From: a virus
IMG/VR virus record: IMGVR_UViG_3300022934_000004
Length of the DNA: 64,000 bases
Strand: one strand, 5' to 3'
The translations under genes and the position numbers were made by a program. Below, one piece after another: positions 3,068 to 57,516 of the stretch. A model generated the notes under the pieces. The model had not been told where the DNA came from and made no database searches. It saw nothing but the letters and a program-made list of their open reading frames with translations. Position 1 is the stretch's first letter; every line of letters begins with the position of its first letter.

Positions 3068-3580
3068 ATGCGTTTCAAGAATGTTGTGGTGATTGTCGAT
3101 GCATGGCAAACTTGGCCTGATGAAGATGTTAGAAGTCACGCACTTATTGAAACAGAAGCACATACATTTGGTAATTACATAAATACAATGTTACCTTATA
3201 TAAGAAATGTAAGTGAAGTGTTTCATTATACCGGATATCCAGAATATAAAAAATATGGATTAATGGAATCTATAGACAGAAAAAATGATAAAGTAATATA
3301 CAAATTAAGTGATGTAATTGATGATGATAGATATATTCATCACTGGATAAACAACGTAAATAGAATTTATGTATGTGGATTTCACTATGATATTTGCGTA
3401 AATAATGTATTAGAAAAATACGAAAAAAAATGGGATGTTCCAAAAGAAAAATTAGGAGTACTTTTAAATATGACAATTCCACACCCATGTGGCACATATA
3501 AGTTTAGTCAACCTGACTATGATCATTATATGTTTACGATTAGAGGATCATTTGAAAAAATTAAGGAGTTTAAATTATGA
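3068..3580 (+). CDS. Isochorismatase/cysteine-hydrolase-like protein
   Basis: VVIVDAW near N-terminus and YVCGFHYDICV. Confidence 0.5.
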   Translation: MRFKNVVVIVDAWQTWPDEDVRSHALIETEAHTFGNYINTMLPYIRNVSEVFHYTGYPEYKKYGLMESIDRKNDKVIYKLSDVIDDDRYIHHWINNVNRIYVCGFHYDICVNNVLEKYEKKWDVPKEKLGVLLNMTIPHPCGTYKFSQPDYDHYMFTIRGSFEKIKEFKL

Positions 3581-3990
3581 GTGATTGGGCAAATGACATT
3601 TACATGATGCACAATAAATTTGGAGTACGTGAATGGTTTGATAAAAATAAAGAAGATAAAGATCTTATGCGGAAATATATTATGTTTCGTATGCTAATGA
3701 TTGGTGAAGAATATCAAGAAACATTGTCAGCTATTAATAATTCTGATGCAGAAGAAGTTGTTGATGGCCTTATTGATATGTGTGTATTTGCTATCGGTAC
3801 TCTTGATGTAATGGGAGTAGATGCTAATGAAGCATGGGATAGAGTGTATGAAGCTAATATGGCAAAAAAGCCTGGTGTAAAACCTGGTCGGCCTAATCGT
3901 TTTGGTTTACCTGATTTATTAAAACCTGGCGGTTGGAAAGGTCCAACTCACGAGGGGAATGTTGGTGATCTACCACGCATTATTGACTGA
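3577..3990 (+). CDS. All-alpha NTP pyrophosphohydrolase (MazG/PRA-PH-like; candidate dCTPase/dUTPase)
   Basis: EEYQE...EEVVDGLID acidic motif, W..V..ANMAK...GLPDLLKP. Confidence 0.75.
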   Translation: MSDWANDIYMMHNKFGVREWFDKNKEDKDLMRKYIMFRMLMIGEEYQETLSAINNSDAEEVVDGLIDMCVFAIGTLDVMGVDANEAWDRVYEANMAKKPGVKPGRPNRFGLPDLLKPGGWKGPTHEGNVGDLPRIID

Positions 3991-4175: not shown

Positions 4176-5105
4176 ATGCAAACAACCTTAACTATATTCA
4201 AATCAATATTTGATAATAAGACTCATCGTAAGATGGAGTTTTCAACCTTTATGGAATTTGAAAGCTTTCTTTACAAATTATCAAAGACTAAATATAGTAA
4301 TAAAAAAGAAGCATCACTCATTTCACCTGCTACATATATATTAGACTCAACACGTGCTAATAAGAATGTAGTTGATTGGGGTGGGTGGTGTGCAATTGAC
4401 GTTGATGATCATCAGTTTGAAGGTAATTTAAAAGAGGAGCTAATAAAAAAATATGGTGAGTATCATTTTGTCTGTTATTCTACTGCTAGCTCTAGAGAAA
4501 ACTTTCCAAAGTTTCGTATGGTCTTCCCAATTACGCAAAGAGTTGAAGCAAATAACCTCCCACATTTCTGGTTCGCACTCAACAGCGAATTTGGATCCAT
4601 TGGTGATAAACAAACTAAAGATTTATCACGAATGTATTATATCCCTGGTACGTACGCTGGCAGTTTCAACTTTATCTTTACTAATCCTGGCGAGTATATT
4701 GATCCGCTAAAACTTATGAGAAAGCACGCTTATGTTGAAAAGAAATCAAGTTCATCTTTCTTAGATCGTATGCCAGAAGAATTACAAAAACAAGTAATAG
4801 AATATAAAAAATCTAAATTAACAAATACAGACGTCACTTGGACTGGATATAAGGATTGTCCATTTTTTCCTCGTAGATTAGAGTCAGAATATAAAACAAT
4901 AAGTAACACTGGTTGGTATCATAAGATGTATCAAATCATGGTTGCTTTAGCAGGAAATGCTTTGAAAAATCAATATCCAATCACCGCACAACAAATGGCA
5001 GAGTTATGTAGAGAACTAGATATTGAAACTGGAAACTGGTATGCAAATCGTCCATTAGAAGTAGAAGCAGATAGAGCATTGGAGTACGCTTATAGAAATG
5101 TCTAA
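4176..5105 (+). CDS. Archaeo-eukaryotic-type primase (prim-pol-like)
   Basis: WCAIDVDD (DxD), YSTASS..PKFRMVFP, D.QTKDLSRMYYIP; helical C-terminal domain. Confidence 0.7.
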   Translation: MQTTLTIFKSIFDNKTHRKMEFSTFMEFESFLYKLSKTKYSNKKEASLISPATYILDSTRANKNVVDWGGWCAIDVDDHQFEGNLKEELIKKYGEYHFVCYSTASSRENFPKFRMVFPITQRVEANNLPHFWFALNSEFGSIGDKQTKDLSRMYYIPGTYAGSFNFIFTNPGEYIDPLKLMRKHAYVEKKSSSSFLDRMPEELQKQVIEYKKSKLTNTDVTWTGYKDCPFFPRRLESEYKTISNTGWYHKMYQIMVALAGNALKNQYPITAQQMAELCRELDIETGNWYANRPLEVEADRALEYAYRNV

Positions 5106-7056: not shown

Positions 7057-7240
7057 TATTGGCGAAGATTCAAATGGAGAATTAGTAGTTAATTTACCAT
7101 CAGATATTCTTAACCAAATGGGATGGGATGCTGGTACTGAATTAATTTGGGAAGAACATAACGACGGAACATGGAGTTTTAGAAAAAATGAGAATCCTGA
7201 TAATGGGACTGCCGGGAGCGGGGAAAACACACCTAGCTAA
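7031..7240 (+). CDS. AbrB/SpoVT-like small protein
   Basis: GELVVNLPSDILNQMGWDAGTELIW. Confidence 0.6.
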   Translation: MNQKTWTADIGEDSNGELVVNLPSDILNQMGWDAGTELIWEEHNDGTWSFRKNENPDNGTAGSGENTPS

Positions 7241-7610
7241 AAGGTTACAAATTCATTTAAATTGTGCTTGGTATAATGCTGATAAGATTAGAGAGCAAGC
7301 CAATGATTGGGACTTTACTCCATCTGGCAGAAATAGACAAGCAGAAAGAATGAATACTCTTGCATTATTTGAAGGATCTCGTGGTCGTACTGTTATTTGT
7401 GATTTTGTTTGTCCTACTGGAGAAACACGTAAACAGTTTATAGCTGATATTACAATATGGATGGACACAATAGAAGAGGGTAGGTTTGATAATACTAATA
7501 AAATATTTGAAAGACCTACAGAAGTTGATTATCATGTAAAGTCTTTCATGTCTGATGAAGAAATAATTAACTTCGCAAAAGTATTAAGAGAGGATTTTCC
7601 AGGTGTTTGA
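7188..7610 (+). CDS. Adenylylsulfate (APS) kinase-like P-loop kinase
   Basis: GLPGAGKT, NADKIR, DFTPSGRNRQAERM, FERP. Confidence 0.75.
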   Translation: MRILIMGLPGAGKTHLAKRLQIHLNCAWYNADKIREQANDWDFTPSGRNRQAERMNTLALFEGSRGRTVICDFVCPTGETRKQFIADITIWMDTIEEGRFDNTNKIFERPTEVDYHVKSFMSDEEIINFAKVLREDFPGV

Positions 7611-8013
7611 TCATAAAAAACCAACAACGCAAATGCTAGGTCGATGGCAGCCTTGGCATGCTGGGCATACAGAATTATTTAAAAGAGCTTTAGCAGAAAC
7701 TGGTCAAGTTGCTATTATGATTCGAGATGTTGGTGGTATTATTGGATCTGATGCTGGTGGTGGAAGAACTGTAGCACAAGATGATAATCCTTTTGACTAT
7801 AGTCAGGTTGTACAAAATATTCAAGTCGCATTACATAAAGAAGGTTTTGCATATAACGAGAAATACATTATTATGAAAGTTCCTAATATTGTAGACATTA
7901 GTTATGGGAGAGGTGTAGGTTATACATTCACTGAACATGATTTAGGAAAAGACATACACGATATTAGCGCTACAAAAATTAGAGCTCAGCTACGTAAGGA
8001 TGGTAGACTTTGA
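7603..8013 (+). CDS. HIGH-family nucleotidyltransferase (ATP-sulfurylase/NMNAT-like)
   Basis: GRWQPWHAGH, DNPF, YGRGVGY, ISATKIR. Confidence 0.75.
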   Translation: MFDHKKPTTQMLGRWQPWHAGHTELFKRALAETGQVAIMIRDVGGIIGSDAGGGRTVAQDDNPFDYSQVVQNIQVALHKEGFAYNEKYIIMKVPNIVDISYGRGVGYTFTEHDLGKDIHDISATKIRAQLRKDGRL

Positions 8014-8576: not shown

Positions 8577-8758
8577 GTCTCCATATCTTTGCATCGCCAA
8601 TGGTAGCATTTTTTATGATACTCATATGGGCAGCATTGTTTGGTGATACTGTATTCTTTCTAATAGAAAATAATATGATTGAAGAATGGATTATTTGTAT
8701 ACAGATTTATATTTCAATAATGTTATTAGTAAAATTTAAAAGGACTTTGTATAAATGA
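8573..8758 (+). CDS. Small membrane protein
   Basis: Two hydrophobic segments; ATGA overlap at 8573. Confidence 0.45.
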   Translation: MSLHIFASPMVAFFMILIWAALFGDTVFFLIENNMIEEWIICIQIYISIMLLVKFKRTLYK

Positions 8759-9540
8759 GAATTATCGCCGGACCATGTCAACATGAAACCTTTGAACAAA
8801 GTTTAGAAATCGCTTTACATTGTAAAGATGTTTGTGATAAGTACGAAGCTGAATATTATTTTAAAGCTAGTTTTGATAAAGCAAATAGAACAAGCTTGAC
8901 TGGAAAACGTGGTCTTGGTATGCCAATGACTCTACATCATTTCCGTGATTTAAAAACCGAAATACCTGGTCTTAAAATTCTTACTGATGTTCATAGTGTA
9001 GAACAAGTTAGACAATTGGGGTATCAAGGTAGTGGAAATCTAGTAGACGTACTACAGATTCCAGCATTTCTCTGTAGGCAAACAGATTTAATTGTTGAAG
9101 CTTGTAGAACAGAGAAAATAGTAAATATAAAAAAAGGTCAATTTCTAGCGCCTTGGGATGTTACAGGAATTTTAAGTAAAACACAAGGTGCTAAAGAAGT
9201 ATGGATAACTGAAAGAGGTACAAGTTTTGGATATAATAACCTTGTTGTCGATTTCACTGGTGTTGACTATATGCTTAATAATTATGACTGCGATATTGTT
9301 CTCGATGTTACTCACTCTGTCCAAAAGCCCGGCGGAATTGGACATTGCTCGGGCGGTGCTCCTATTCACGTGCCTGGGTTGGCTCGTTGTGGGGCTGCTT
9401 TGGGGGTCACTTCCTTCTTTATCGAAGTCCACCCTATGCCTGAATCCGCACCCAGTGATTCGGAAAGTATGCTTAGATTAGATGATTTTGAAAGAGTTGT
9501 AGATGAAATCCACCGCTATTCTTATTCCAGCGAGATATGA
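8755..9540 (+). CDS. kdsA: KDO8P synthase
   Basis: IAGPC, KASFDKANRTS, QIPAFLCRQT, NIKKGQF, TERG.SFGY, D.THSVQ. Confidence 0.95.
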   Translation: MRIIAGPCQHETFEQSLEIALHCKDVCDKYEAEYYFKASFDKANRTSLTGKRGLGMPMTLHHFRDLKTEIPGLKILTDVHSVEQVRQLGYQGSGNLVDVLQIPAFLCRQTDLIVEACRTEKIVNIKKGQFLAPWDVTGILSKTQGAKEVWITERGTSFGYNNLVVDFTGVDYMLNNYDCDIVLDVTHSVQKPGGIGHCSGGAPIHVPGLARCGAALGVTSFFIEVHPMPESAPSDSESMLRLDDFERVVDEIHRYSYSSEI

Positions 9541-10180
9541 GTCAAGTAGATACCCTGGTAAGCCATTAGTTAATCTTGGTGAAATGACTATGATTGAAAG
9601 AGTGTATGAGACTTGTGCTGATACAGGTTTAGATACATATGTACTTACTGATGACTATAGAATTGCTTCATTATTTAATGACAATAATTGTCGATTAGAT
9701 ACTACAGAATATAATAATGGTACAGAAAGATGTGCCGGAGCGCTCGATAAAATACCAGAATATGATCAGTACATAAACGTTCAAGGTGATATGCCTGATG
9801 TGAATAAGCATATGATTAATAAAGTAATATGGCATTTAAAGCATTACCCTATCACTACTCTTTTCACCGATATGCCAGAAAAAATGCGAAATGATCCTAA
9901 CTCTGTAAAAGTAGTAAGAGGTGGAGATAAAGCCCTTTGGTTCGGAAGAGGAATGGCAGGCTATGGCGATTGGCATTTAGGAATTTATGGATATAAAAGA
10001 AATCCTTTACAATTCTATAGCAAGTATGGTATAATAGAAGAAGAAAGAATAGAACAACTAGAGCAATTGCGCTGGTTAAAAACAGGTTGGGACATAGGTA
10101 TACTGCATACTGAATTTAATGGAATAGAAATTAATACACCAGAAGATGAAAAAAGGTGGAATGAAAAATGGCTAATATAG
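9503..10180 (+). CDS. kdsB: CMP-Kdo synthetase (3-deoxy-manno-octulosonate cytidylyltransferase)
   Basis: IPARYESSRYPGKPL, GTERC, NVQGD, HLGIYGY, EQLEQLRW, INTPED. Confidence 0.93.
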   Translation: MKSTAILIPARYESSRYPGKPLVNLGEMTMIERVYETCADTGLDTYVLTDDYRIASLFNDNNCRLDTTEYNNGTERCAGALDKIPEYDQYINVQGDMPDVNKHMINKVIWHLKHYPITTLFTDMPEKMRNDPNSVKVVRGGDKALWFGRGMAGYGDWHLGIYGYKRNPLQFYSKYGIIEEERIEQLEQLRWLKTGWDIGILHTEFNGIEINTPEDEKRWNEKWLI

Positions 10181-11358
10181 AAATAATAACTAACCCAACT
10201 GGCAGATCTCCTGAGAATAAAATATTTTATGGAAACTTAGCTAGAAAACTAGATTTATCAAGACCAAAATATAATAAGATAGGCGAAGAAAAATATTTTT
10301 GGGAATTTTATGAAGATTTAAATGAATACAATTATAAACATTACTTGCATTTTTATACTTCTCGTCGCGGTTTTGCTGTCTTAACTAATGATGATAGACA
10401 TGCTCAATTTGTAAGAAACATGTTTTCAGTAGTAGATGATCCAACTGAACATTATGCAGAATGGAAAATTATTCACAACACTGAAATTAATTGTCCACCT
10501 ACAATTGCTGTACATTTAGATGAAAAAATTATGTTAATTGGTGGAACTACTTTTCTAGGTGAAATTAAAAAAGGAGTGTTTGGTATTTTAGGATTTGAAT
10601 TACCAGACGAAAATGTTTTACCAATGCATTGTAGTGCTTTTACTTTTAAGGATAAAACTAATCTTATGTTTGGATTAAGTGGAACAGGTAAAACAACATT
10701 AAGTAGTGATCCTCAATTTGGTTTAATTTCAGATGATGAAGTATCTTGGAATGAAGAAGGCATCGCAAAAGTTGAAGAAGGCTGCTATGCTAAATCAGAA
10801 GGTTTGTCACCTGAAACACATCCAACTATTTTTAATGCTGTGGAAGCTGCAAAAAAAGCTGAAACATTAGTAATAGAAAATCCTGGTGCTGCTAATGCTA
10901 GATTAAGTTATCCTTTAAAGTATGTAGAAAATGCATATATAAATGATACACAATTCAAACATCCTAATAATATATTTTTTCTAACAATGGATGCTACAGG
11001 TAGTTTTCCTCCAGTAAGTAAAATTTCTGGAGAAACTGTAAGACGGTTCTTTGAAACTGGATATACAAGTCAAATGCCAGGCACTGAAGCAGGTGTTGAA
11101 GAAATTAAAAAAATATTTTCACCATGTTATGGATCACCTTTTATGCCTAGAAATGTAAATGTATATAGCGATATGTTAATGGAAAAAATAGAAGAACATG
11201 ATGTTAATGTTTATTTAATTAATACTGGTATGGATAAAAAAGGTAAAAGATTTCCATTAGAATTTACTCGTAATTGTGTAACAAATTCTCTAATTAGAGG
11301 AGCCGAAGATAGAAGCGAAGAAGTCTTAGAAATCTTAGAAAGGATGATAAATGGGTGA
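10168..11358 (+). CDS. pckA: ATP-dependent phosphoenolpyruvate carboxykinase, compact form (396 aa)
   Basis: TGRSP, GEIKK, PMHCSA, FGLSGTGKTTLS, DDE, GCYAK, FSPCYGSPF, YLINTG. Confidence 0.9.
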   Translation: MANIEIITNPTGRSPENKIFYGNLARKLDLSRPKYNKIGEEKYFWEFYEDLNEYNYKHYLHFYTSRRGFAVLTNDDRHAQFVRNMFSVVDDPTEHYAEWKIIHNTEINCPPTIAVHLDEKIMLIGGTTFLGEIKKGVFGILGFELPDENVLPMHCSAFTFKDKTNLMFGLSGTGKTTLSSDPQFGLISDDEVSWNEEGIAKVEEGCYAKSEGLSPETHPTIFNAVEAAKKAETLVIENPGAANARLSYPLKYVENAYINDTQFKHPNNIFFLTMDATGSFPPVSKISGETVRRFFETGYTSQMPGTEAGVEEIKKIFSPCYGSPFMPRNVNVYSDMLMEKIEEHDVNVYLINTGMDKKGKRFPLEFTRNCVTNSLIRGAEDRSEEVLEILERMING

Positions 11359-11821: not shown

Positions 11822-12259
11822 ATGAAAGTAGGATTTACATGTAGTACGTTTGACTTGCTTCATGCTGGTCATATCGCAATGCTAAGAGAAGCAAAAGAAC
11901 AATGCGATTGGCTTATTTGTGGATTGCAAGTAGATCCGTCTTGGGATCGTGAAGAAAAAAACTCACCTATTCAAAGTGTAGTAGAAAGATACAAACAACT
12001 TTCTGCAGTAAAATATGTAGATGAAATCATTGTTTATTGTACAGAATCCGATTTACTTGATATAATAAACATGTATCCAATTGATGTACGTATACTTGGT
12101 GATGAATATAAAGATAAAGATTTTACTGGCAAAGATGAATGTAGACGTAGAAATATTTCTTTATATTTTAATAAACGAGACCACAGATTTTCGTCATCAG
12201 ATTTGCGTAAAAGAGTATTTGAAAGAGAGCTAGAAAAAAATGATTCTCCAAACGGTTAG
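11822..12259 (+). CDS. Glycerol-3-phosphate cytidylyltransferase-like (TagD family)
   Basis: FDLLHAGH, VKYVDE, RDHRFSSSDLR. Confidence 0.85.
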   Translation: MKVGFTCSTFDLLHAGHIAMLREAKEQCDWLICGLQVDPSWDREEKNSPIQSVVERYKQLSAVKYVDEIIVYCTESDLLDIINMYPIDVRILGDEYKDKDFTGKDECRRRNISLYFNKRDHRFSSSDLRKRVFERELEKNDSPNG

Positions 12260-12938
12260 TGACATACGTCAATTTTTTATTGATGAACTAAATGATGAAG
12301 CCTTTACTATAGATAAAACAGGTCAAAAAACTATTGAGTTAATTGGTGCTAATTTTTTATGCACTGAACCTGCTATTTTTGGTACACCTAGTCAAGAATA
12401 TATTAACAAAGAAATAGCTTGGTATGAATCAGGTTCAACAAACATTTATGATATAAATGGTGTTGATTCAGATGCACCTCCTCAAGCATGGCAATACGCA
12501 GCAAATAAACATGGTGAAATAAATTCTAATTATGGTCACTTACTTTTTTCTGAAAAATATCATTATCAATTCCAACATGCCTTTGATGAATTACAAGCTA
12601 ATCCAGATTCACGTCGTGCACAAATGATTTATAACCGTCCATCAATATGGTGTGAATATAATGAAGGCGGTAAATCTGATTTTATTTGCACTAATGCACA
12701 AACATTTTATATTCGTGATGGCATACTTTCAATGGTATCTCAAATGCGTTCTAATGATGTTGTTTATGGATATAAAAATGATTATGCTTGGGCACAATAC
12801 TTAATGGATAAATTTGTAAGAGAATGGAATTCATTAGCAGAAATTTATGGTGAACATGGTCCTATTGAAAAAGGTATGTTAATGTGGCAAGTCATGAATT
12901 TACACGTGTATGAACGTCACTTCCATTTAGTTAAATAA
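12240..12938 (+). CDS. 42: dCMP hydroxymethylase (T4 gp42-like thymidylate synthase family)
   Basis: INSNYG, SDFICTN, MRSNDVVYGYKNDYAW (Asp at the cytosine-specificity position), NLHVYERHF. Confidence 0.9.
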   Translation: MILQTVSDIRQFFIDELNDEAFTIDKTGQKTIELIGANFLCTEPAIFGTPSQEYINKEIAWYESGSTNIYDINGVDSDAPPQAWQYAANKHGEINSNYGHLLFSEKYHYQFQHAFDELQANPDSRRAQMIYNRPSIWCEYNEGGKSDFICTNAQTFYIRDGILSMVSQMRSNDVVYGYKNDYAWAQYLMDKFVREWNSLAEIYGEHGPIEKGMLMWQVMNLHVYERHFHLVK

Positions 12939-12947
12939 GGATATGGA

Positions 12948-13631
12948 ATGAAAGAATTTAGATGTGGTCCTGAATGGGATGAAAGAATTGTAAAACTAAA
13001 TCCAGCTAAAAAGATTGGTGTGTTAATGTCATCAGGCGCTGACAGCACTACACTTTTTAAATTATTATGGGACAATTTTCCTGATACAGAAATTAGAATT
13101 TTTAATGTACAGACTTCATGGGATCCTAAGAAACCTTTAATTGAAGAAATCCTTGAAAAATTTGACGTTGATTTAGAATTAGAAATCATCGGAGAAAAGT
13201 ATCATAATTGGGAAATGAAAAATCATTTTGCTAGACTTATGCTTGCGTTTCAAGATGTAAGAAATGATGAAGATATTGAAGAACTTTATTGTGGAAATAT
13301 TTTGCCTCCACATCCTCAATGGTTTCCTCGTTGGAATGTAGACCAAAAGGGAATGGCAAAACGCCCATGGCTAACTAATGATAAATTTTGGAAGAATCCG
13401 TTTGAACATATTGAAAAATATCATGTAATTGATTTAGGAAGACGGAATGGATTTGACTATATTTATGACACAACTATTTCATGTAACACTCACGCCACTG
13501 AACCTTGTGGTTATTGTATGGGGTGTAGAGAATTAGAATATGCATATGATCAATTAGATAATGAAAAAGGTCTATCTCTTGATGAGTGTGCTAAAATTGC
13601 AGTAAATATGTATGGAGATATAGGATGGTAG
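12948..13631 (+). CDS. QueC-like PP-loop ATPase
   Basis: MSSGADST, NPF...K, TISC...PCGYCMGC. Confidence 0.65.
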   Translation: MKEFRCGPEWDERIVKLNPAKKIGVLMSSGADSTTLFKLLWDNFPDTEIRIFNVQTSWDPKKPLIEEILEKFDVDLELEIIGEKYHNWEMKNHFARLMLAFQDVRNDEDIEELYCGNILPPHPQWFPRWNVDQKGMAKRPWLTNDKFWKNPFEHIEKYHVIDLGRRNGFDYIYDTTISCNTHATEPCGYCMGCRELEYAYDQLDNEKGLSLDECAKIAVNMYGDIGW

Positions 13632-14182
13632 ACTTAGTTGAAAAATATAATCATGCTGCTAAGACATATTATGAAGAAAAATATGTTGATGGCGGATGGG
13701 AAAACAACATCTATATGCAAGATGAGAAAGATGCTCATGAGTTTTGGATGGAGAATATAGAAGAGGGAAAAATTATTTCATTAGGTGTTGGATCCGGACA
13801 AGACATTCCTATCTTACAATGGCCTGGACCAGAAAATTTTACAGGATATGATTTATCTCAAGGCATGTTAAATAATGCTAAAGAAAAGTTTAAAGATTAT
13901 AACTTTGTTTTAGCTGATTGTAATGAAAATATAGATGATAGCTGTGATGTTCTTGTTAGTTTATTTGGTGTACCTAATTACATAGGTCTTCCTAAGTTGT
14001 TGGAGCACTATAGAAATTTTAATGCTCAGCATGCTTTTTTTATATTTTATGCAGAATGGTATGATGATGGCATTGCTGAAGAATACCATAAATACACTAA
14101 AGAAGAATTACAAAAATTGTTGTATCCTTATAATCCTATTATTAAACAACTAAATGAAAATTATTATATCGTTAAATGGTAG
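13625..14182 (+). CDS. Class I SAM-dependent methyltransferase
   Basis: SLGVGSG, GYDLSQGML. Confidence 0.7.
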   Translation: MVDLVEKYNHAAKTYYEEKYVDGGWENNIYMQDEKDAHEFWMENIEEGKIISLGVGSGQDIPILQWPGPENFTGYDLSQGMLNNAKEKFKDYNFVLADCNENIDDSCDVLVSLFGVPNYIGLPKLLEHYRNFNAQHAFFIFYAEWYDDGIAEEYHKYTKEELQKLLYPYNPIIKQLNENYYIVKW

Positions 14183-14328
14183 ATGTTAATAAAATTTTAC
14201 ATTACTTGGATATGGCATATTAGTACTTGGAAGTTTAAAATTACACCTAAAGAAGTTAGATGTAATAATGAAACTACCAGGTATTATTCTATTAGAATAG
14301 GACCTATCTGGATGAAGTGGTATGTAAA

Positions 14329-14577
14329 ATGAACTGGTTAATAGTAGTAATATTTGGAACATTGCAAGGCGATGTTTATATTTTTGAAAAGCCTAGGTTT
14401 GAAACTAGAGAAGAATGTATGGTTAGTATTAGAGATCCATTAGATCAAATCGCGTATCTTGGAAAATTAAAAGAAGAATATGGAAAAGACATGCCAATAT
14501 TAGCAGTAAACTGTTTGCAAGAAAAAGTAATAAAAGAAATATTAAAAAAATCTTTTGGTGAAGAGCAAGAAGTATGA
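14329..14577 (+). CDS. Small signal-anchored protein with two Cys (dispersed family)
   Basis: MNWLIVVIF...FETREEC...VNC. Confidence 0.55.
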   Translation: MNWLIVVIFGTLQGDVYIFEKPRFETREECMVSIRDPLDQIAYLGKLKEEYGKDMPILAVNCLQEKVIKEILKKSFGEEQEV

Positions 14578-15008
14578 AATGGGATATACGATATTTAAAA
14601 TTAGCAGAAGAAGTATCTAAGTGGTCTAAAGATCCATCTTCTCAAATCGGTGCTATTGCTGTAGGATCTAAAGGTCAAGTTTTATCTCAAGGATATAATG
14701 GTTTTCCTAGAGGAATAACAGATTCTCTTGATAGATATGCAGTGAGAGAAACTAAATACAAGTACATAGTACATGCTGAACAGAATGTAATTTATAACGC
14801 AACATACAACGGAGTATCATTAGATGGAGCTACCTTATTTGTTCATGGCTTGCCTGTTTGCAACCATTGTGCTCTTGGTGTTATTCAGGTAGGAATAAAA
14901 AGAGTTGTTATGCCAAGACAAAAAATAAAAGAACAGTGGGTCGAGTCATGGAATATGACTAAACAATTATTTGATGAAGCAGGCGTAGAGTATGAATTCA
15001 TTTGCTGA
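14574..15008 (+). CDS. cd: dCMP deaminase
   Basis: SKDPS, GYNGFPRG, HAEQN, PVCNHC. Confidence 0.92.
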   Translation: MKWDIRYLKLAEEVSKWSKDPSSQIGAIAVGSKGQVLSQGYNGFPRGITDSLDRYAVRETKYKYIVHAEQNVIYNATYNGVSLDGATLFVHGLPVCNHCALGVIQVGIKRVVMPRQKIKEQWVESWNMTKQLFDEAGVEYEFIC

Positions 15009-15717
15009 AATGTATTCCAAAATTATAGAGGGATACAGATGGACAGTAATAAATGTAGACACTACTCATAGGTGTTTACTTCAATGTCAGTTTTGTTCAC
15101 GCCAATCTGAAGTTCAAGGACAACCTATGATTTCTGATTATAGGAAATCTTATGGTGATTTAAAATCAAAAGAATTGAGAAAGTTAACTAACTTCGTAAG
15201 AAGTGGCATTTCATTTTGTGGTCAGATTTCTGATCCTATCTATCACAAAGATTTTATTTCATTATTGTCATCAATAGATGATGTAACATATTTAGAAAAA
15301 ATCGAAATTCATACAAATGGATCTGGAAAAAAACAAGAGTATTGGGATGAACTTGTAGATGTAGCTTGGCAACTTCCAACTAGAATAGAATGGCACTTTG
15401 GTATAGATGGCATAGATGAAAAAGCAGCTATTCATAGAGTTGGCCAAGATTTTCATTCAGCTTTTGAGGCAATGAAATATGTAGCATCAAGGCAAAGAAG
15501 AGAACCTGAATGGGAAAGGTGGAGAGTCATTTGGCAATACATTCCATTTGCATATAATGAACATGATATTATGAAAGCAAAAGAAATGGCAGATGAAATA
15601 GATGTAGAATTAATATTACTTACTTCAGGTAGGTTTAATCCTGACAGTCCAGTTGCTCCTCCTACAAATATAAATTTAATTTCTAAAAAACTATTTGGTG
15701 AGAAAAAAAGAGTATGA
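14992..15717 (+). CDS. Radical SAM protein
   Basis: CLLQCQFC (CxxxCxxC), HTNGS, FGIDG, YNEH. Confidence 0.85.
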   Translation: MNSFAEMYSKIIEGYRWTVINVDTTHRCLLQCQFCSRQSEVQGQPMISDYRKSYGDLKSKELRKLTNFVRSGISFCGQISDPIYHKDFISLLSSIDDVTYLEKIEIHTNGSGKKQEYWDELVDVAWQLPTRIEWHFGIDGIDEKAAIHRVGQDFHSAFEAMKYVASRQRREPEWERWRVIWQYIPFAYNEHDIMKAKEMADEIDVELILLTSGRFNPDSPVAPPTNINLISKKLFGEKKRV

Positions 15718-16028
15718 AACTTTATCCTCAATGTTGGAGCGTAACAATGGAAGGCGATTATAAACCCAATGATGGATTTCCTGGTGCAGGAAATGGTTTA
15801 GCCTTTACTGCTTCAGGGCATCTTCTTCCTTGTTGTTATTTAGATAAGTATCACAACTATAAAAATAATACTAAAAATTTATGGGATGATGAATTAAGAG
15901 TTGATCGAAATGATGACATTCTTGATATTATAGAATCAGAACAGTGGTATAACTTTCACAAAGAATTATATGAACATCCTGAAAATGCATGTAAAGAATG
16001 TCACATGCATTGTTCTTCACCAAAATAA
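15714..16028 (+). CDS. Stand-alone SPASM/Twitch Fe-S domain protein
   Basis: C...GHLLPCCY...C..C...C; directly follows the radical SAM gene. Confidence 0.7.
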   Translation: MKLYPQCWSVTMEGDYKPNDGFPGAGNGLAFTASGHLLPCCYLDKYHNYKNNTKNLWDDELRVDRNDDILDIIESEQWYNFHKELYEHPENACKECHMHCSSPK

Positions 16029-16037
16029 AAAAAATAG

Positions 16038-16066
16038 TTTACATTTGTGTAAAAATATGTTAGAAT
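16038..16066 (+). promoter_or_regulatory. Promoter for the GT-epimerase-dehydrogenase-MTase operon
   Basis: TTTACA-17-TAGAAT. Confidence 0.7.
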
Positions 16067-16123
16067 TATATTTAATAATCATAAATACGTATATCACACA
16101 CTTGTAAATTTAAGGAATCATAA

Positions 16124-17371
16124 ATGACTAGAATTGCTATTATCCTTGGTCGTGGTACTGAAGGCTGCGGTGTAACACAATGTGCTATTCAAATGCAAAA
16201 AGTAACAGGAGCAGATATCTATTCTGCAATTGATAAAAAATGGGGACGAGCTAAAGGATTAGAAATTGATCAAAAAGAATTTGTAATGGGTACGCAGTGG
16301 GAATTAACTGCAGATGTTATTAATTCAATGTATGATTTAGCAATCATTTATTCAGTACCTTCTAAGTCTCATCCACAAGATTGTCAAGATAATTTTGTAC
16401 CATTTTTACAGAGACTAAAAATACGTAAAGCGTTTATTAATGTAGACCATAAAGCTGCTTCAATAGCACGTAATGCTAATCTAAAAGAAGTTTGCGAAAA
16501 TGTTGATGTCATTATGACTCACAGTCTTGAAAATGATTTCTCAAAATTTATGAAGAAAAATAGAATCCAAACTCCATTAACTAAAATGGGTTTGGGTTTT
16601 GATTATGAGGATCACCGTCAAAAGTATTGGCGACCAATTGAAGAACAACAGCATAATATGGTTCGTTGGATTGGTCGTACTGCAATGTGGAAAGGTCCTA
16701 GTTTAATGATTGATTTCCATCAAGATGCTTTGATGGAGCAAGGATTTATAACTGTCCTTGAAGGTTTAGAAGCTTCTATACAATATCCTCTTGTTTTATA
16801 TCGTGATAATAAAGAAGATAATCCTGTTGATCGCCGCATGGTTGAAAATTATTTTAGACCAGAAAAGAAATTTAATGAAGTCAAGTTTACACCTGACTTG
16901 TATGGTAAAGAAGAAACCAATAAAGGTGCTTATCTATATCCTCAATACATAAATAATGAGGCAATGATGAGAATGGCACGTTCAGCATTTGGTTCAGATC
17001 TTTATCATTTAAAAGCAGAAACATATGGTAACAATATTGAAAATTGTCATGCTGAATGTATTGCATCTGGCACTGTACCATTATTCCATAAACATTTCTG
17101 TGATAACGTAATACACCCTGTACAGGGTGATCCTATTAGTCAATGCAAAAATTCTGGCACTCTTGGTGTTGACTATACTAATTTTAAAGAGTGTCAAGAA
17201 ATGATGACAAAACTCAAAAACGATCCGTCTATGAGAGATGATTGGAGAGAAATGGCATTTGAATTTTGGAAACAACACTCCAATGGTGAGGATGTTGTAA
17301 ATGAAATTATTGATCTTGCTATTAACACAACTGAAAACCAACCACAAGGACTAGAGGAATTTTTCGTATGA
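16124..17371 (+). CDS. DNA alpha-glucosyltransferase-like GT-B enzyme (hmC glycosyltransferase)
   Basis: N-terminus IAIILGRGTEGCGVT resembles T4 alpha-gt (ICIFMARGLEGCGVT, recalled); WIGR...K, E...G..P. Confidence 0.75.
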   Translation: MTRIAIILGRGTEGCGVTQCAIQMQKVTGADIYSAIDKKWGRAKGLEIDQKEFVMGTQWELTADVINSMYDLAIIYSVPSKSHPQDCQDNFVPFLQRLKIRKAFINVDHKAASIARNANLKEVCENVDVIMTHSLENDFSKFMKKNRIQTPLTKMGLGFDYEDHRQKYWRPIEEQQHNMVRWIGRTAMWKGPSLMIDFHQDALMEQGFITVLEGLEASIQYPLVLYRDNKEDNPVDRRMVENYFRPEKKFNEVKFTPDLYGKEETNKGAYLYPQYINNEAMMRMARSAFGSDLYHLKAETYGNNIENCHAECIASGTVPLFHKHFCDNVIHPVQGDPISQCKNSGTLGVDYTNFKECQEMMTKLKNDPSMRDDWREMAFEFWKQHSNGEDVVNEIIDLAINTTENQPQGLEEFFV

Positions 17372-18327
17372 AAATTTTAGTAACAGGTATTGCCGGCATG
17401 ATCGGCTTTCACGCAGCCAGGCACTTCGCAAAAAATAATTGGGAAGTATGTGGCTTAGACAATTTTAATGATTATTACGATCCACAATTAAAAGAAGATC
17501 GTGCTAACATTTTACAAGAAGAATATAATGTTCCTATTATGCGAGGGGACATTGAAGACTTTAAAGTAATTAATGACAATACGTCATTTATGAAAGATGT
17601 AGATATTGTATTACACTTAGCTGCATATGCAAATCCAAGACACGCTCTTGAAGAACCGCAACCATATATTGATACTAACATAACTGGAACACAACGTATT
17701 ATAGAAGTATGTGAAGAACTAAACATACCAGTTGTATATGCATCAAGCTCCTGCGTTATGCATGGACAGCCTTTACCTTGGAATGAACATGATCGACCAG
17801 ATTTACAAAACAATCCATATGGTTGGTCTAAACGAGTAAATGAATGTCAGTTTTCTCATTCTAAAATTTCACGTTCTGCAGGCCTTCGCTTCTTTACAGT
17901 GTATGGACCATATGGTCGACCAGACATGGCTCTATTTAAATTCACAGATGGAATCGTTAAAGGTGAACCAATCACACTTTATAATTATGGTGATATGAAA
18001 CGTGATTTTACCTATGTACAAGACATCGTAGATGGTATAGAATTAGTAGTAGATAAAGCTATGAATGAAACCAATCAAGAATGGCATGAAATCTATAATA
18101 TTGGTTATGGCCAACAGGTTAATCTATTAGATTTTGTAGATGAAATTGAAAAAAATCTTGATCGGAAAGCAGAAAGAGAATTAGCGCCTAAACATCCTGC
18201 AGATGTCCCTGAGACGTGGTCTGACACTACTAAATTACAAGCGTTAGGTTATAATCCTAAAACTTCTATAACAGATGGTGTTAAAGAATTCATTACATGG
18301 TACAAAAGTTATTATGGAGTTAATTAA
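17368..18327 (+). CDS. UDP-glucuronate 4-epimerase-like SDR
   Basis: TGIAGMIG, DNFNDYYD..LK..R, YGWSK, LRFFTVYGPYGRPDMA, RDFTY. Confidence 0.88.
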   Translation: MKILVTGIAGMIGFHAARHFAKNNWEVCGLDNFNDYYDPQLKEDRANILQEEYNVPIMRGDIEDFKVINDNTSFMKDVDIVLHLAAYANPRHALEEPQPYIDTNITGTQRIIEVCEELNIPVVYASSSCVMHGQPLPWNEHDRPDLQNNPYGWSKRVNECQFSHSKISRSAGLRFFTVYGPYGRPDMALFKFTDGIVKGEPITLYNYGDMKRDFTYVQDIVDGIELVVDKAMNETNQEWHEIYNIGYGQQVNLLDFVDEIEKNLDRKAERELAPKHPADVPETWSDTTKLQALGYNPKTSITDGVKEFITWYKSYYGVN

Positions 18328-19145
18328 TGAGAATGACAATTGTTGGCCACGGGTTTGTTGGCAAAGCTGTGGATTATGGCTTTTCAAATAAAGCTATTAC
18401 TAAAACTATCATCGATCCTCTCTATAATACTACTTTAGATGATGTAGAATTAAGTGAAGATATAACGTTTGTTTGTGTTCCTACACCTATGGGTAAAGAT
18501 GGATCGATCGATTGTTCTATTGTAGTTGATACTGTAACAAAACTTTTGCTACGTAGATCAGGAATCATTGTTATTAAATCAACTGTGACACCTGACATAA
18601 TTGAAAAATTTTCAAGACGCGGTGGAGGTGCTAGAGTAGTTTACAATCCTGAATTTTTAACTGAAAAAAATGCATGTGAAGATTTTGTAAATCCATCTAT
18701 GCATATTTTTGGAGGAAATCCAGAAGCTACAGAAAGATTAGAACAAATCTATAAAGACTTTAGCTTATGCAAGCCGTGTCCTGTATATCACATGACGTCC
18801 ACTGATGCAAGCTTTGTAAAGTATGGAATTAATTGTTTCCTTGCATCAAAGGTCTTATGGATGAATCAATTTTATGATGTCATAGAAAACTTTGGAGGAA
18901 ATTATGGTGTTATCAGTAACGCAATTGGAACAGATCCAAGAATTGGTAGGTCTCATATTACTGTGCCTGGGTTTGATGGCAAGCGTGGCTTTGGTGGCGC
19001 TTGCTTCCCAAAAGACACAGCAGCGTTTGCGAACTTTGCGAAATCTTTTTCCGTTTTAGAAAAAGTTATCGAAGAGAATAATAAGTATCGTAATTGTTAT
19101 GATAAAGATGAAAGAGAAAAGGCTCAGAATGTAAATTATGGTTAA
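18327..19145 (+). CDS. UDP-glucose 6-dehydrogenase (lacks the C-terminal domain)
   Basis: GHGFVG, CVPTP, KSTV.P, NPEFL, GFGGACFPKD. Confidence 0.88.
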   Translation: MRMTIVGHGFVGKAVDYGFSNKAITKTIIDPLYNTTLDDVELSEDITFVCVPTPMGKDGSIDCSIVVDTVTKLLLRRSGIIVIKSTVTPDIIEKFSRRGGGARVVYNPEFLTEKNACEDFVNPSMHIFGGNPEATERLEQIYKDFSLCKPCPVYHMTSTDASFVKYGINCFLASKVLWMNQFYDVIENFGGNYGVISNAIGTDPRIGRSHITVPGFDGKRGFGGACFPKDTAAFANFAKSFSVLEKVIEENNKYRNCYDKDEREKAQNVNYG

Positions 19146-20328
19146 GTATGCAAGTATAGTTCCACTCATTGGTGGAGAAACAATAGCAATGCAAAATGTA
19201 TTTGGGACAAAACCTGAATATATATTATCATATACGGACTTTGAAGCAAATGACAGCCAACTTCTTAATTATTACGACAATAGCGTTCCTTATTATAAGC
19301 TTGACGTGGGTGGTCTTGCGCCTCATAGTGTCGATGTTGTCAACACTGTTTGCCCTTGCGCTGGCTTGTCTTCCCTTTCTCCTAGCAGCAATGCTGATAG
19401 CAGCACTAATGACTGGATGGTCAAGTCAGCAGAATATGTTTTGGAATCAATTCAGCCAACAGTTTTTTGGGGAGAAAATGCTCCAAGATTAGCAAGCAAA
19501 ATGGGTGAAAAGGTTGTAGCACAACTTCGTCAACTAGCAAGAAAAAATGGTTATACCTTTAGCATTTATAAAACTAAATCTATTTTACATGGACTAAGTC
19601 AAATTAGAGATAGAACTTTCTATTTTTTCTGGAAAGGTAACTCAATTCCAAGATTTAATTTTTATAAAAGACAATATGAAAAAATTGAAGACACTATTCG
19701 TTCTGCTGCAACCAATGAAGCAGATCCAATGTTTGAAACTTTAACAAATAGTAAGACTCCATCTGAAGAACCTTTTTATCAATACGTATTACAAGAAATG
19801 CATGGTGGTATTAGTCATATGGAATTTTTCAATTTAATTGAAAAAACAACCAATCCATTGCATTATATTGAAGACAAAGGTGTTGATTACGAAGATGTAG
19901 CAAAATGGATGGACGATAATGGCCATGAAAATCATGCACGTAAATGTCGTAGGATGGGTGAAAAGCTAAAAGCTGGTGGTAACATTATGAGAAAAACTAC
20001 AGAAGTTGGTAAAAATTATATTGGTGCTTTTGTTGGTCATTTTCCAATGGAACTTACTCATCCAGATCAAGACAGATATTTAAATATTAGAGAAGCTTTG
20101 TCAATTATGAAAATGCCTAAGGATTTTCAATTAGTAGGTGGTCGAAAAAACATTAATATGATTTGTCAAAACGTTCCAGTAACTACTGCACAAGACATGG
20201 CTGAAAATGTAAAAAGATTTTTAAGCGGTGATGCTTGTCTTGTTGAGTCAGATTTCGTAATTCAAGATAATAAATCAGAAACCTTTTGGTCTGAAAAACA
20301 ACCGGCAACATTAGAAGCATTTATGTAA
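19138..20328 (+). CDS. Divergent C5-cytosine DNA methyltransferase-like protein
   Basis: CPCAGLS (motif IV), GENAP (VI), Q.RDRTF (VIII), HP..DRYLNIRE (IX), QNVP (X); atypical motif I SIVPLIGG. Confidence 0.8.
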   Translation: MVKYASIVPLIGGETIAMQNVFGTKPEYILSYTDFEANDSQLLNYYDNSVPYYKLDVGGLAPHSVDVVNTVCPCAGLSSLSPSSNADSSTNDWMVKSAEYVLESIQPTVFWGENAPRLASKMGEKVVAQLRQLARKNGYTFSIYKTKSILHGLSQIRDRTFYFFWKGNSIPRFNFYKRQYEKIEDTIRSAATNEADPMFETLTNSKTPSEEPFYQYVLQEMHGGISHMEFFNLIEKTTNPLHYIEDKGVDYEDVAKWMDDNGHENHARKCRRMGEKLKAGGNIMRKTTEVGKNYIGAFVGHFPMELTHPDQDRYLNIREALSIMKMPKDFQLVGGRKNINMICQNVPVTTAQDMAENVKRFLSGDACLVESDFVIQDNKSETFWSEKQPATLEAFM

Positions 20329-20338
20329 GGAGTATCCT

Positions 20339-21391
20339 ATGTCTATTATGGATAAATTAAAAAAGAACTCAAAGTTAAATCATACTGAAGTTCTTGCAGA
20401 ATCAAAATTTTTTACTGAAAAAGATATGGTTCCAACAGACGTTCCAATGGTGAATGTTGCATTATCAGGATCAGTTGACGGTGGGCTAGCACCTGGTCTT
20501 ACTGTTTTAGCTGGCCCTTCAAAACATTTTAAAACATCCTTTGCTCTTTTAATTGCTGGAGCATATATGAAAAAACATCCAGATTCTGTTATGCTTTTTT
20601 ATGATTCAGAATTTGGTTCGCCTCAAAGTTATTTTGAACAATTTGGCGTAGATACAAATAGAGTATTGCACACTCCTATTACAAACGTAGAAGAATTAAA
20701 GTTTGATTTAATTGCACAACTAGAAAATTTGGATAGAGATGATAAAGTTGTAGTAGTTATAGATTCCATTGGCAATCTTGCTTCAAAGAAAGAAATGGAA
20801 GACACTCTCAATGAAAAATCTGTAGCAGATATGTCTCGCGCTAAAGCTCTCAAAGGTTTATTTCGTATGGCAACACCTTATCTTGCTATGAAGAATATTC
20901 CTTTACTTGCAGTAAATCATACATATAAAGAAATTGGATTATTTCCTAGAGATATTGTTGGTGGCGGAACAGGCATTTATTATTCAGCTGACAATATCTG
21001 GATTCTCGGCAGACAACAAGACAAAAAAGGTACCGAGATTCAAGGTTATCATTTTGTTATTAATGTGGAGAAGAGCAGGTATGTTAAAGAAAAGTCTAAA
21101 ATTCCTATTACTGTTTCCTGGGACGGCGGTGTTCGCAATTATTCTGGGTTGCTTGACGTGGCTCTTGTTGGTGGGTACGTTACTAAACCTTCAAATGGCT
21201 GGTATGCAGCGGTTAATATGGAGACAGGTGAAATTGGCCAAAAGGTTAGGCATGATCAAACTTTAGAAAAAGAATTTTGGGATAGCATTTTTGCTAATAC
21301 TAATTTTAAAGAGTTTCTAAAAAAACAATATTCAATTGGATACCAAGATCAAGTATCAATGGATGCTATTGTAGAGGAAGTAATTGAATGA
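20339..21391 (+). CDS. uvsX: RecA-like recombinase UvsX
   Basis: GPSKHFKT, YDSEFG, DSIGNLASKKE, GGTGIYYSAD. Confidence 0.95.
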   Translation: MSIMDKLKKNSKLNHTEVLAESKFFTEKDMVPTDVPMVNVALSGSVDGGLAPGLTVLAGPSKHFKTSFALLIAGAYMKKHPDSVMLFYDSEFGSPQSYFEQFGVDTNRVLHTPITNVEELKFDLIAQLENLDRDDKVVVVIDSIGNLASKKEMEDTLNEKSVADMSRAKALKGLFRMATPYLAMKNIPLLAVNHTYKEIGLFPRDIVGGGTGIYYSADNIWILGRQQDKKGTEIQGYHFVINVEKSRYVKEKSKIPITVSWDGGVRNYSGLLDVALVGGYVTKPSNGWYAAVNMETGEIGQKVRHDQTLEKEFWDSIFANTNFKEFLKKQYSIGYQDQVSMDAIVEEVIE

Positions 21392-23048: not shown

Positions 23049-23735
23049 ATGCATGCACGTCTCATATCCTATAGCCAACCCTCAGGTCGTATCCACGCAG
23101 GAGAACTTGGTTACGCGGGGCTTGATAACATCCAAGACCTCGTCGCCTATTGCGCCCGTGTCTCCAATCCACAAAACCAAGCTAACACCAAAACAACAAC
23201 AAAGCTACTTAAATATCTCATCAAGCACAAGCACTGGTCACCATTCGAAATGGCAAGCGCCTGCCTCGAAGTCGAAACCACAAGAGACATTGCCCGACAA
23301 TTCCTTCGACACCGCTCCTTTTCCTTTCAAGAGTTTTCTCAGCGGTATGCTGACATCCGCGATCTTAATGACAATTTTATTTTAAGAGAAGCACGATTAC
23401 AAGACACTAAAAATCGTCAAAATAGTATAAGTATTAATGATAAAGAATTACAAATGCAATGGGAAGGATACCAACAGAGTGTTATCAATCAAGCAAAAGC
23501 AGCATACGAATGGGCAATTGAAAACGGGATTGCCAAGGAACAAGCCAGGGCTGTTTTGCCGGAAGGAAACACAGTCTCTCGTCTTTATGTTAATGGCACC
23601 ATTCGTTCTTGGATACATTACATTGATTTGCGCACGGCAAATGGGACACAAATGGAACATATCGAATTGGCAAAAGAAATAGCAAAAGCAATATCTGCAA
23701 TTTATCCTAGTATAATGGAGATCTTAGATGGGTAA
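23049..23735 (+). CDS. thyX: Flavin-dependent thymidylate synthase
   Basis: HWSPFE, RHRSFSFQEFSQRY, EQARAVLP. Confidence 0.95.
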   Translation: MHARLISYSQPSGRIHAGELGYAGLDNIQDLVAYCARVSNPQNQANTKTTTKLLKYLIKHKHWSPFEMASACLEVETTRDIARQFLRHRSFSFQEFSQRYADIRDLNDNFILREARLQDTKNRQNSISINDKELQMQWEGYQQSVINQAKAAYEWAIENGIAKEQARAVLPEGNTVSRLYVNGTIRSWIHYIDLRTANGTQMEHIELAKEIAKAISAIYPSIMEILDG

Positions 23736-25059: not shown

Positions 25060-25137
25060 TTCAAAATACGTTGCCTATGATGATAGTACTGGCAAAGTGA
25101 TAATTATATCACAGTATAAAAAAATAATTTTTAGCCA

Positions 25138-25166
25138 TTTACAATCCTTGGGATATGTGGTTAAAT
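25138..25166 (+). promoter_or_regulatory. Putative promoter of the tmRNA precursor
   Basis: TTTACA-17-TTAAAT with TGTGG extension. Confidence 0.5.
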
Positions 25167-25171
25167 AAACA

Positions 25172-25470
25172 AGTAGATGTTAGAGGGTATTCAGGACCGC
25201 GGGGCGGTACCGCGCAGCTCCACCATAAACACTTGGAGAATGAAATGAGTGATATAGTTACATATTTGTCATTGAGACTTGTACAGTACGGATTGGTAAT
25301 TGTACTATTTGGAAGTTTATTAGAAGTGTTTTTGATGGGGCTGAAATAGGATCGACTGGTATTTGAGTCTACGAAAATCAAATGCAAACGATAACTTTGC
25401 ACCATCTGGTTACGCTCTAGCAGCATAACACAGGGGGTTGGCCACTTACCTAGCAACAGAAAAGTGGTGA
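25172..25470 (+). ncRNA. ssrA: Circularly permuted two-piece tmRNA (alphaproteobacterial type); acceptor piece ~25172-25225, intervening segment 25226-25336, coding piece 25337-~25470; tag ANDNFAPSGYALAA*
   Basis: T-arm CGCGG-GGCGGTA-CCGCG followed by CAGCTCC-ACCA (25198-25225) lies upstream of the 5' strand GGGGCTG (25337), pairing with G3.U70; resume codon GCA at 25384, stop at 25426-25428; outer ends approximate. Confidence 0.93.
25245..25349 (+). CDS. Putative 34-aa hydrophobic peptide encoded in the tmRNA intervening segment
   Basis: GGAG RBS at 25235-25238, ATG at 25245; MSDIVTYLSLRLVQYGLVIVLFGSLLEVFLMGLK. Confidence 0.4.
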   Translation: MSDIVTYLSLRLVQYGLVIVLFGSLLEVFLMGLK

Positions 25471-25499
25471 ATTCGCACAGAAATAGTAAAGGAAGAAAA

Positions 25500-57515: not shown

Positions 57516-57516
57516 T

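Follow-up and report, generated by a model that had tools for sequence, protein, structure and literature searches.

Gene-based prediction of a hexuronic acid on hydroxymethylcytosine in the DNA of a marine T4-like phage

Introduction

A uronate on phage DNA, and even on 5-hydroxymethylcytosine (5hmC, or hmC), is not categorically new. The natural DNA of Bacillus phage SP-15 carries phosphoglucuronolactone and glucose on 5-dihydroxypentyluracil, and its uronic acid was shown chemically (PMC5977210). Hexuronate-5hmC (433 atomic mass units) has been made in E. coli from metagenomic phage clusters (contigs 57 and 91) that combine a C5-methyltransferase (C5-MT), a TET-like oxygenase (5mYOX) and a GT-A glycosyltransferase, one of these cases being epimerase-dependent, and that study also reported Kdo- and heptose-modified 5hmC (bioRxiv 10.1101/2023.12.21.572611). 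Here we analyse a 64,000-nucleotide stretch of viral DNA (IMG/VR record IMGVR_UViG_3300022934_000004; hereafter, the window) in which a homolog of the T4 alpha-glucosyltransferase (AGT) is encoded beside putative UDP-uronate enzymes, between a gp42-type dCMP hydroxymethylase gene and uvsX. From these genes we predict, with modest confidence, that the virion DNA carries galacturonosyl- or glucuronosyl-hmC. Since AGT acts with retention, an alpha linkage is expected: most likely in alpha-galacturonosyl-hmC, less likely in glucuronosyl-hmC.

The window has 33% GC, bears every large gene on the + strand, and is DNA of an uncultured marine T4-like myovirus. Its closest GenBank relative is Phage C48C1, an uncultured-type phage whose uvsX protein is 76% identical (tblastn), and no DNA-level match to the window was found among GenBank phages. 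For comparison, we fetched 80 IMG/VR loci via AGT and 80 via the C5-methyltransferase-like protein described below, and mapped the window's proteins on them. In the per-gene synteny counts, only loci with enough DNA beside AGT enter the denominator.

Results

AGT and putative UDP-uronate genes form a compact block ahead of uvsX

An initial annotation of the window had proposed a block encoding an AGT homolog, a UDP-glucuronate (UDP-GlcA) 4-epimerase, a UDP-glucose dehydrogenase (UGDH) and a C5-cytosine-methyltransferase-like (C5-MTase-like) protein, ahead of uvsX. All of these genes were recovered where that annotation had placed them:

16038-16066, + strand: sigma-70-like promoter candidate, TTTACA-17-TAGAAT with TG, in the 95-nt gap ahead of AGT
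16124-17371, + strand: homolog of T4 AGT, a GT-B enzyme (PDB 1xv5, E 3.8e-40, residues 3-397; Pfam AGT, E 1e-30)
17368-18327, + strand: UDP-GlcA 4-epimerase-type extended short-chain dehydrogenase/reductase (SDR) (PDB 5u4q, E 2.6e-70; BcUGAepi 6zl6, E 5.5e-42; MoeE5, E 4e-28)
18327-19145, + strand: short UGDH-like NAD-dependent sugar dehydrogenase, 272 aa (Pfam PF03721 and PF00984)
19138-20328, + strand: C5-MTase-like protein (Pfam DNA_methylase, E 9e-18)
20339-21391, + strand: uvsX recombinase, the right-hand flank of the slot (tblastn against C48C1, 76% identity)

The AGT homolog is full-length, scores 107.5 bits against Pfam PF11440 (cut-off 25) and is about 30-33% identical to T4 AGT. No close AGT of its clade was found in the cultured phages of our collection, where the best identity was about 30%. 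Its predicted acceptor is hmC in duplex DNA, to which the hydroxymethylase synteny and the clamp-type tail described below point indirectly. From AGT onward the gene junctions overlap or abut (17368/17371, 18327, 19138/19145), and this arrangement of start and stop codons makes translational coupling of the AGT, epimerase, UGDH and C5-MTase-like genes plausible, as had been proposed. The accompanying proposal of a separate promoter ahead of AGT is plausible as well, but sigma-70-like sites are not enriched above chance in this AT-rich region (61 sites, against 53.5 expected from shuffles).

The SDR carries the signature of UDP-GlcA 4-epimerases

Among the best solved matches of the SDR is BcUGAepi, the characterised UDP-GlcA 4-epimerase of Bacillus cereus, and matches to rival families were far weaker (UXS, E 8e-15; GalE, about 1e-20). 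In BcUGAepi the functional residues comprise the catalytic triad, the carboxylate binders Thr126, Ser127, Ser128 and Thr178, and Arg185, which holds the carboxylate of UDP-galacturonate (UDP-GalA) (PMC7984243, PMC12338863). The window's SDR has S127, S128, C129, Y151, K155, T177 and R184 at the signature positions, and in this way keeps the Ser/Tyr/Lys triad, the carboxylate-binding residues and the equivalents of Thr178 and Arg185. The sole signature change puts Cys at the place of Ser128, where decarboxylases typically have Glu. Across 70 homologs, at identities down to 50%, none of these residues varies. No NCBIfam model passed, so that the protein has no equivalog-level name from that source; the residue signature identifies it, with good confidence, as a putative UDP-GlcA 4-epimerase.

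The window encodes a short UGDH-like protein and a longer NDP-sugar dehydrogenase

When aligned to PDB 4a7p, the short UGDH of the block retains the GxGxxG motif (GHGFVG), NPEFL, the Lys/Asn pair (KxxxN) and the catalytic Cys in GGACFPKD, and these motifs are invariant in 58 homologs. Its length is not a truncation artefact: over 6000 database proteins match it, and the top 120 all measure 270-294 aa and have the same two domains. The short form is an abundant phage family.

A second dehydrogenase lies outside the block:

31462-32580, + strand: NDP-sugar 6-dehydrogenase, 372 aa (Pfam N-terminal and central domains)

Aligned to PDB entries, it extends as far as the beginning of the C-terminal domain (GKGFKP), and it carries GGSCHPRD. 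In the stretch 30221-33160 its gene is flanked by a Methyltransf_24 gene and by the gene of a 414-aa protein that matches no family.

Genes predicted to supply hydroxymethylcytosine are present

The enzymes that would supply hmC and adjust the nucleotide pools are encoded as follows:

12240-12938, + strand: gp42-type dCMP hydroxymethylase (T4 enzyme, PDB 1b49, E 2.5e-62)
14574-15008, + strand: dCMP deaminase (Pfam dCMP_cyt_deam_1, E 2.9e-18; phrog_174, E 4e-41)
3577-3990, + strand: MazG-like all-alpha NTP pyrophosphohydrolase (Pfam PRA-PH, E 5e-10; PDB DR2231 MazG-like, E 3e-4)
23049-23735: ThyX

A hydroxymethylase of the gp42 type had been expected from the initial annotation and is borne out by full-length homology, matches to thymidylate synthases being no better than E 1e-4. 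In enzymes of this type, an Asp in place of the thymidylate synthase Asn confers cytosine specificity. The window's protein keeps the equivalents of T4 Cys148 and Asp179 in the motifs FICTN and KNDYAW (the D179N mutant entry 6l18 marks the latter position), and both the catalytic Cys and the cytosine-specifying Asp are invariant in 54 homologs. The phage is thus most likely able to replace cytosine with hmC, which would then be incorporated into its DNA. The MazG-like and ThyX genes named in the same annotation are also present. The MazG-like gene adjoins the primase gene in most related loci, and its product is a candidate dCTPase/dUTPase that may act in the role of gp56.

AGT and the epimerase stay together in a slot that otherwise holds DNA-modification cassettes

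The epimerase gene follows AGT in 67/67 related IMG/VR loci, at a distance of 27 nt or less in 64 of them. This adjacency persists, at AGT identities down to 66%, while the surrounding genes vary (QueC-like, S-adenosylmethionine (SAM)-dependent methyltransferase, radical SAM/SPASM, KdsA/KdsB, phosphoenolpyruvate (PEP) carboxykinase and cupin genes). Of 39 loci, 38 have the hydroxymethylase ahead of AGT, and the count for the dCMP deaminase is the same (38/39). The short UGDH comes next after the epimerase in 52 of the 59 loci that could be scored, and the epimerase is retained in the seven loci where the UGDH is missing from that place. Hosts rarely make UDP-GalA, and retention of the epimerase without the UGDH therefore fits a need for this nucleotide sugar. 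A second, distant AGT clade (31-35% identity) likewise has an epimerase-UGDH pair adjoining.

The gene order of the window, pol ... 42 - [block] - uvsX - small open reading frame (ORF) - 41, matches the T4 order 43 - imm - 42 - beta-gt - segA - uvsX - 40 - 41, so that the block occupies the slot of T4 beta-gt. Related phages hold other cassettes in the interval that runs from the dCMP deaminase gene to the C5-MTase-like gene:

L131 5161-9004: inositol-1-phosphate-synthase-like protein with 5-hmdU-DNA-kinase-like protein
L135 4736-5551: TET-associated glycosyltransferase (TAGT)
L126 7794-8978: a more T4-like AGT alone (Pfam E 1e-80)
L153 10-1910: AGT with a short SDR

In the AGT tree, partner content tracks the AGT clades, and clades without the epimerase-UGDH pair are distinct from clades with it. 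Together, the alternative cassettes and the AGT tree mark this position as a probable slot for DNA hypermodification, and they would place the uronate enzymes in that pathway.

AGT, DNA polymerase and the C5-MTase-like protein share a clamp-type tail

The C-terminus of AGT (GLEEFFV) is similar to those of the DNA polymerase (3-2339; TLEDFFV) and the C5-MTase-like protein (TLEAFM). Among 245 ORFs, the tail L[ED]xF[FM] was found in only those three and in one 73-aa stop-to-stop frame outside the called genes, with 0.3 occurrences expected by chance. It resembles the end of T4 gp43, SLDFLFG, the clamp-binding peptide of that polymerase. The tails are kept in homologs, that of AGT in about 70, and they suggest that AGT is probably tethered to the sliding clamp.

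In the C5-MTase-like protein, motifs IV (CPCAGLS), VI (ENAP), VIII (QxRxR) and X (QNVP) are invariant, though variant in form, and the catalytic Cys is kept. Motif I reads PLIGG, not the canonical FxGxG, in all 55 homologs and in the relatives from Pseudoalteromonas phage XG4 and cyanophage S-TIM5. The gene lies directly 5' of uvsX in 48/48 eligible loci, beside many different cassettes. Homologs elsewhere also occur in settings of hmC or glyco type. In phage XG4, an unannotated cultured-phage record (L087 100-6580), the order is hydroxymethylase, an unassigned gene, an NTP transferase (559 aa), a GT-B-like protein, a further unassigned gene and the C5-MTase-like gene, and this phage might serve as a model in which to study the C5-MTase-like partner in the laboratory. 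In the S-TIM5 group, the C5-MTase-like homolog occurs together with an AGT homolog.

Accessory and other sugar genes vary among relatives

Genes around the hydroxymethylase, and between it and AGT, encode further enzymes:

11822-12259, + strand: small HIGH-type nucleotidyltransferase, RfaE domain II/TagD-like, 145 aa (Pfam CTP_transf_like, E 6.5e-15)
12948-13631, + strand: QueC-like PP-loop ATPase with SSGADS and a C-terminal Cys cluster (Pfam QueC, E 6.7e-6)
13625-14182, + strand: class I SAM-dependent methyltransferase (Pfam Methyltransf_25 and Methyltransf_11)
14992-15717 and 15714-16028, + strand: radical SAM protein and a separate SPASM-domain ORF (Pfam Radical_SAM and SPASM, near cut-off)

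The nucleotidyltransferase matches NCBIfam rfaE_dom_II and g3p_cytidyltrns, each under cut-off; its gene overlaps the start of the hydroxymethylase by 20 nt and lies directly 5' of it in most loci. The QueC-like protein matches viral QueC-domain clusters in the Atlas (score 0.97) and occurs only in the closest relatives (L003, L004 and L091); the methyltransferase is also confined to the closest relatives. The radical SAM/SPASM pair is present in only some relatives, at times in two copies. A 7-deazaguanine pathway built on the QueC-like and radical SAM proteins was considered and is not supported, because a SPASM protein accompanies the radical SAM protein and matches to QueE, QueD, FolE and DpdA were not seen. 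None of the window ORFs scanned matched TET_JBP, and the 2-oxoglutarate oxygenases there belong to other families.

Farther from the block, KdsA-like, KdsB-like and compact (396-aa) PEP carboxykinase genes stand in a row at 8755-11358, which looks like a self-supplied pathway of the CMP-Kdo type. A tightly packed glycan island at 55455-60660 encodes a GT8-like protein, a sulfotransferase-like protein, two Methyltransf_24 proteins, two GT25 proteins and two ORFs without assignment; its acceptor could be the host envelope, the virion or a DNA glycan. Two ORFs at 7188-8013, one for an APS-kinase-like P-loop protein and the other for a HIGH-type nucleotidyltransferase, jointly match one 230-aa PHROG (phrog_10255); every relative has them as separate ORFs offset by the same +1 frame, in many cases between uvsX and gene 41. 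The P-loop ORF was rejected as a gp1-type dNMP kinase, its weak matches being APS kinases. ORF 4176-5105, whose C48C1 counterpart adjoins the epimerase, was rejected as a second glycosyltransferase, being a gp61-type primase.

The host is suggested by one further feature:

25135-25472: permuted transfer-messenger RNA of alphaproteobacterial type (Rfam RF01849, 72 bits; RF04321, 87 bits)

ARAGORN made no call at this position. The type of this RNA suggests an alphaproteobacterial host.

Discussion

A proposed route to hexuronosyl-hydroxymethylcytosine

In the route that we propose, the gp42-type enzyme would make 5-hydroxymethyl-dCMP, and hmC would be built into the DNA, with dCMP deaminase, ThyX and the MazG-like pyrophosphatase balancing the nucleotide pools. 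UDP-GlcA would be supplied by the host or by either of the window's two dehydrogenases, the short UGDH-like one or the 372-aa one, and the adjacent epimerase would turn it into UDP-GalA. The divergent AGT homolog, clamp-tethered via its polymerase-like tail, would then use a UDP-hexuronate as donor and glycosylate hmC at the replication fork.

Several observations weigh against this prediction. The short UGDH ends about 40 residues past the catalytic Cys and is without the C-terminal UDP-binding domain PF03720, which was not found in other frames. The UGDH of the initial annotation is thus a short form that keeps the catalytic Cys, and its activity is uncertain because the UDP-binding domain is missing. 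SP-15 was rejected as proof that short UGDHs work, as its own UGDH is full length (436 aa). To this may be added the seven loci that have no UGDH at its position; the 372-aa dehydrogenase or the host is a possible alternative source of UDP-GlcA. The top match of the SDR, 5u4q, is a Klebsiella SDR deposited as a dTDP-glucose 4,6-dehydratase, which bears the same signature as the window's protein and which we read as a putative uronate epimerase from that signature. A search of the window for a dNMP kinase of the gp1 type found none. The C5-MTase-like gene, found as it is beside many cassettes, is a constant partner of the slot and not specific to a uronate pathway. Finally, the synteny is drawn from related phages and hence partly reflects shared descent.

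Other explanations of the same genes

The epimerase and UGDH might instead be auxiliary genes that happen to share the block and supply sugars for other purposes, for example polysaccharide of the host envelope or glycans put on the virion by GT8 and GT25 enzymes, with AGT placing a neutral hexose on hmC (glucose, as in T4). Phage C48C1 lends this explanation weight: its order (L001 11024-12924) is pol - Dam - primase - epimerase - short UGDH - uvsX, and searches of C48C1 for AGT, hydroxymethylase and the C5-MTase-like protein found none, while a control search for the epimerase succeeded, so that the epimerase-UGDH pair can exist apart from hmC glycosylation. The window also holds the separate glycan island (GT8-like, sulfotransferase-like and two GT25), whose GT8-like and GT25 enzymes could use UDP-uronates, and many sugar-nucleotide genes upstream of the block (PMM-like, KdsA, KdsB, PEP carboxykinase and nucleotidyltransferases); such sugar genes are interpreted in the pelagimyophage literature as related to lipopolysaccharide (PMC7029224). 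We nonetheless consider a neutral hexose unlikely. AGT and the epimerase are neighbours in every locus counted, mostly with abutting codons, whereas other sugar genes come and go; the AGT clades without the pair are distinct from those with it; and the slot otherwise holds DNA-specific modification enzymes. In addition, the window's AGT matches the Pfam AGT model far less closely (E 1e-30) than does the AGT of L126 (E 1e-80), which has no such partners, and this distance fits an altered specificity.

If a uronate is transferred, or serves as an intermediate, the final base could still differ: an amide or methyl ester might be formed by the QueC-like ATPase and the SAM methyltransferase, the sugar might be tailored by the radical SAM/SPASM pair, or a pentose might result if the SDR decarboxylates. 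QueC chemistry converts a carboxylate to an amide and a nitrile, and the QueC-like, SAM methyltransferase and radical SAM/SPASM genes lie between the hydroxymethylase and AGT. The glucuronate of SP-15 DNA is moreover thought to be a lactone, which avoids the extra charge (PMC5977210). The QueC-like and methyltransferase genes are found in the closest relatives only and the radical SAM gene in a minority of loci, so these genes are not core, and the SDR keeps the Arg185 equivalent and is without the decarboxylase Glu; we therefore hold a tailored product to be quite improbable. It is very improbable that the block adds no sugar to DNA and that the AGT homolog glycosylates some non-DNA acceptor, given that it is homologous to T4 AGT along its whole length, and given the hydroxymethylase and dCMP deaminase upstream of it, the clamp-type tail that it has in common with the polymerase, and the position of the block at T4 beta-gt. 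Among these explanations we continue to favour a hexuronate on hmC. That interpretation as first proposed is partly supported: its gene assignments hold, and the link between AGT and UDP-uronate enzymes is strengthened by the constant adjacency of AGT and the epimerase, the beta-gt slot and the clamp-type tail, while the identity of the sugar is read from gene context.

Implications of the predicted hexuronate on phage DNA

If the prediction is true, hexuronic acid on hydroxymethylcytosine would be established for the first time in a natural phage lineage. Marine metagenomes are rich in this lineage, with related loci numbering in the hundreds and short-UGDH relatives in the thousands. The T4 alpha-glucosyltransferase family would then have diversified its donor sugars cassette-wise, like O-antigen loci. 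The modification may have an anti-restriction role, and an extra negative charge per cytosine would bear on the packaging of the DNA, on escape from restriction and CRISPR, and on sequencing recovery. The C5-MTase-like partner with its clamp-type tail is an unexplained enzyme in a setting where the cytosine C5 should already be occupied. As a speculation to which we give little credence, the gp42/uvsX slot of marine T4-like phages could be a diversifying "DNA glycan" locus, with interchangeable sugar cassettes between two constant genes. One of these would be the C5-MTase-like enzyme, clamp-tethered and with a non-canonical cofactor motif, perhaps catalysing at the fork a reaction different from ordinary methylation, with hmC or remaining cytosine as its target; in the window, the QueC-like ATPase and the SAM methyltransferase would in addition remove the charge of the uronate by turning it into an amide or methyl ester.

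Comparison with known systems

One close parallel is the T-even glucosyl-hmC system (T4 gp42, cd, gp56, alpha-gt and beta-gt). The window shares with it the gp42-type hydroxymethylase and its Asp switch, the dCMP deaminase, a GT-B transferase of the AGT family and the map position between gene 42 and uvsX-40-41. It differs from T4 in that AGT is always followed by a UDP-GlcA 4-epimerase gene and usually by a short UGDH gene, that a C5-MTase-like gene is added, and that AGT has a polymerase-like tail; neither beta-gt nor a gp1 kinase was seen in the window. Bacterial UDP-GlcA 4-epimerases (BcUGAepi, MoeE5 and the GlaKP/Cap1J type) resemble the phage SDR in the triad, the carboxylate-binding Ser/Thr residues and the Arg185 equivalent, whereas the phage clade has Cys in place of Ser128 throughout, and its gene stands in a replication module beside a DNA glycosyltransferase.

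In the metagenomic C5-MT/5mYOX/glycosyltransferase clusters, a DNA glycosyltransferase relies on the sugar epimerase beside it and the product is hexuronate-5hmC, as is predicted for the window; E. coli, in which that product was made, forms UDP-GlcA but not UDP-GalA. In those clusters 5hmC arises post-replicatively, via a methyltransferase and TET, and the glycosyltransferase GT57 is of the GT-A type (JGT-like), in contrast to the predicted nucleotide-level gp42 route and GT-B AGT of the window. SP-15 resembles the window in encoding a UGDH, 31% identical to that of the window, and differs in that its base is a modified uracil, the uronate is attached via a phosphodiester bond, and its UGDH includes the region that the short form does not have. 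Compared with these systems, the features new to the present locus are a predicted pre-replicative gp42 route joined to an AGT-family GT-B enzyme, a putative phage-encoded supply of UDP-GalA, clamp-type tails and a cassette slot.

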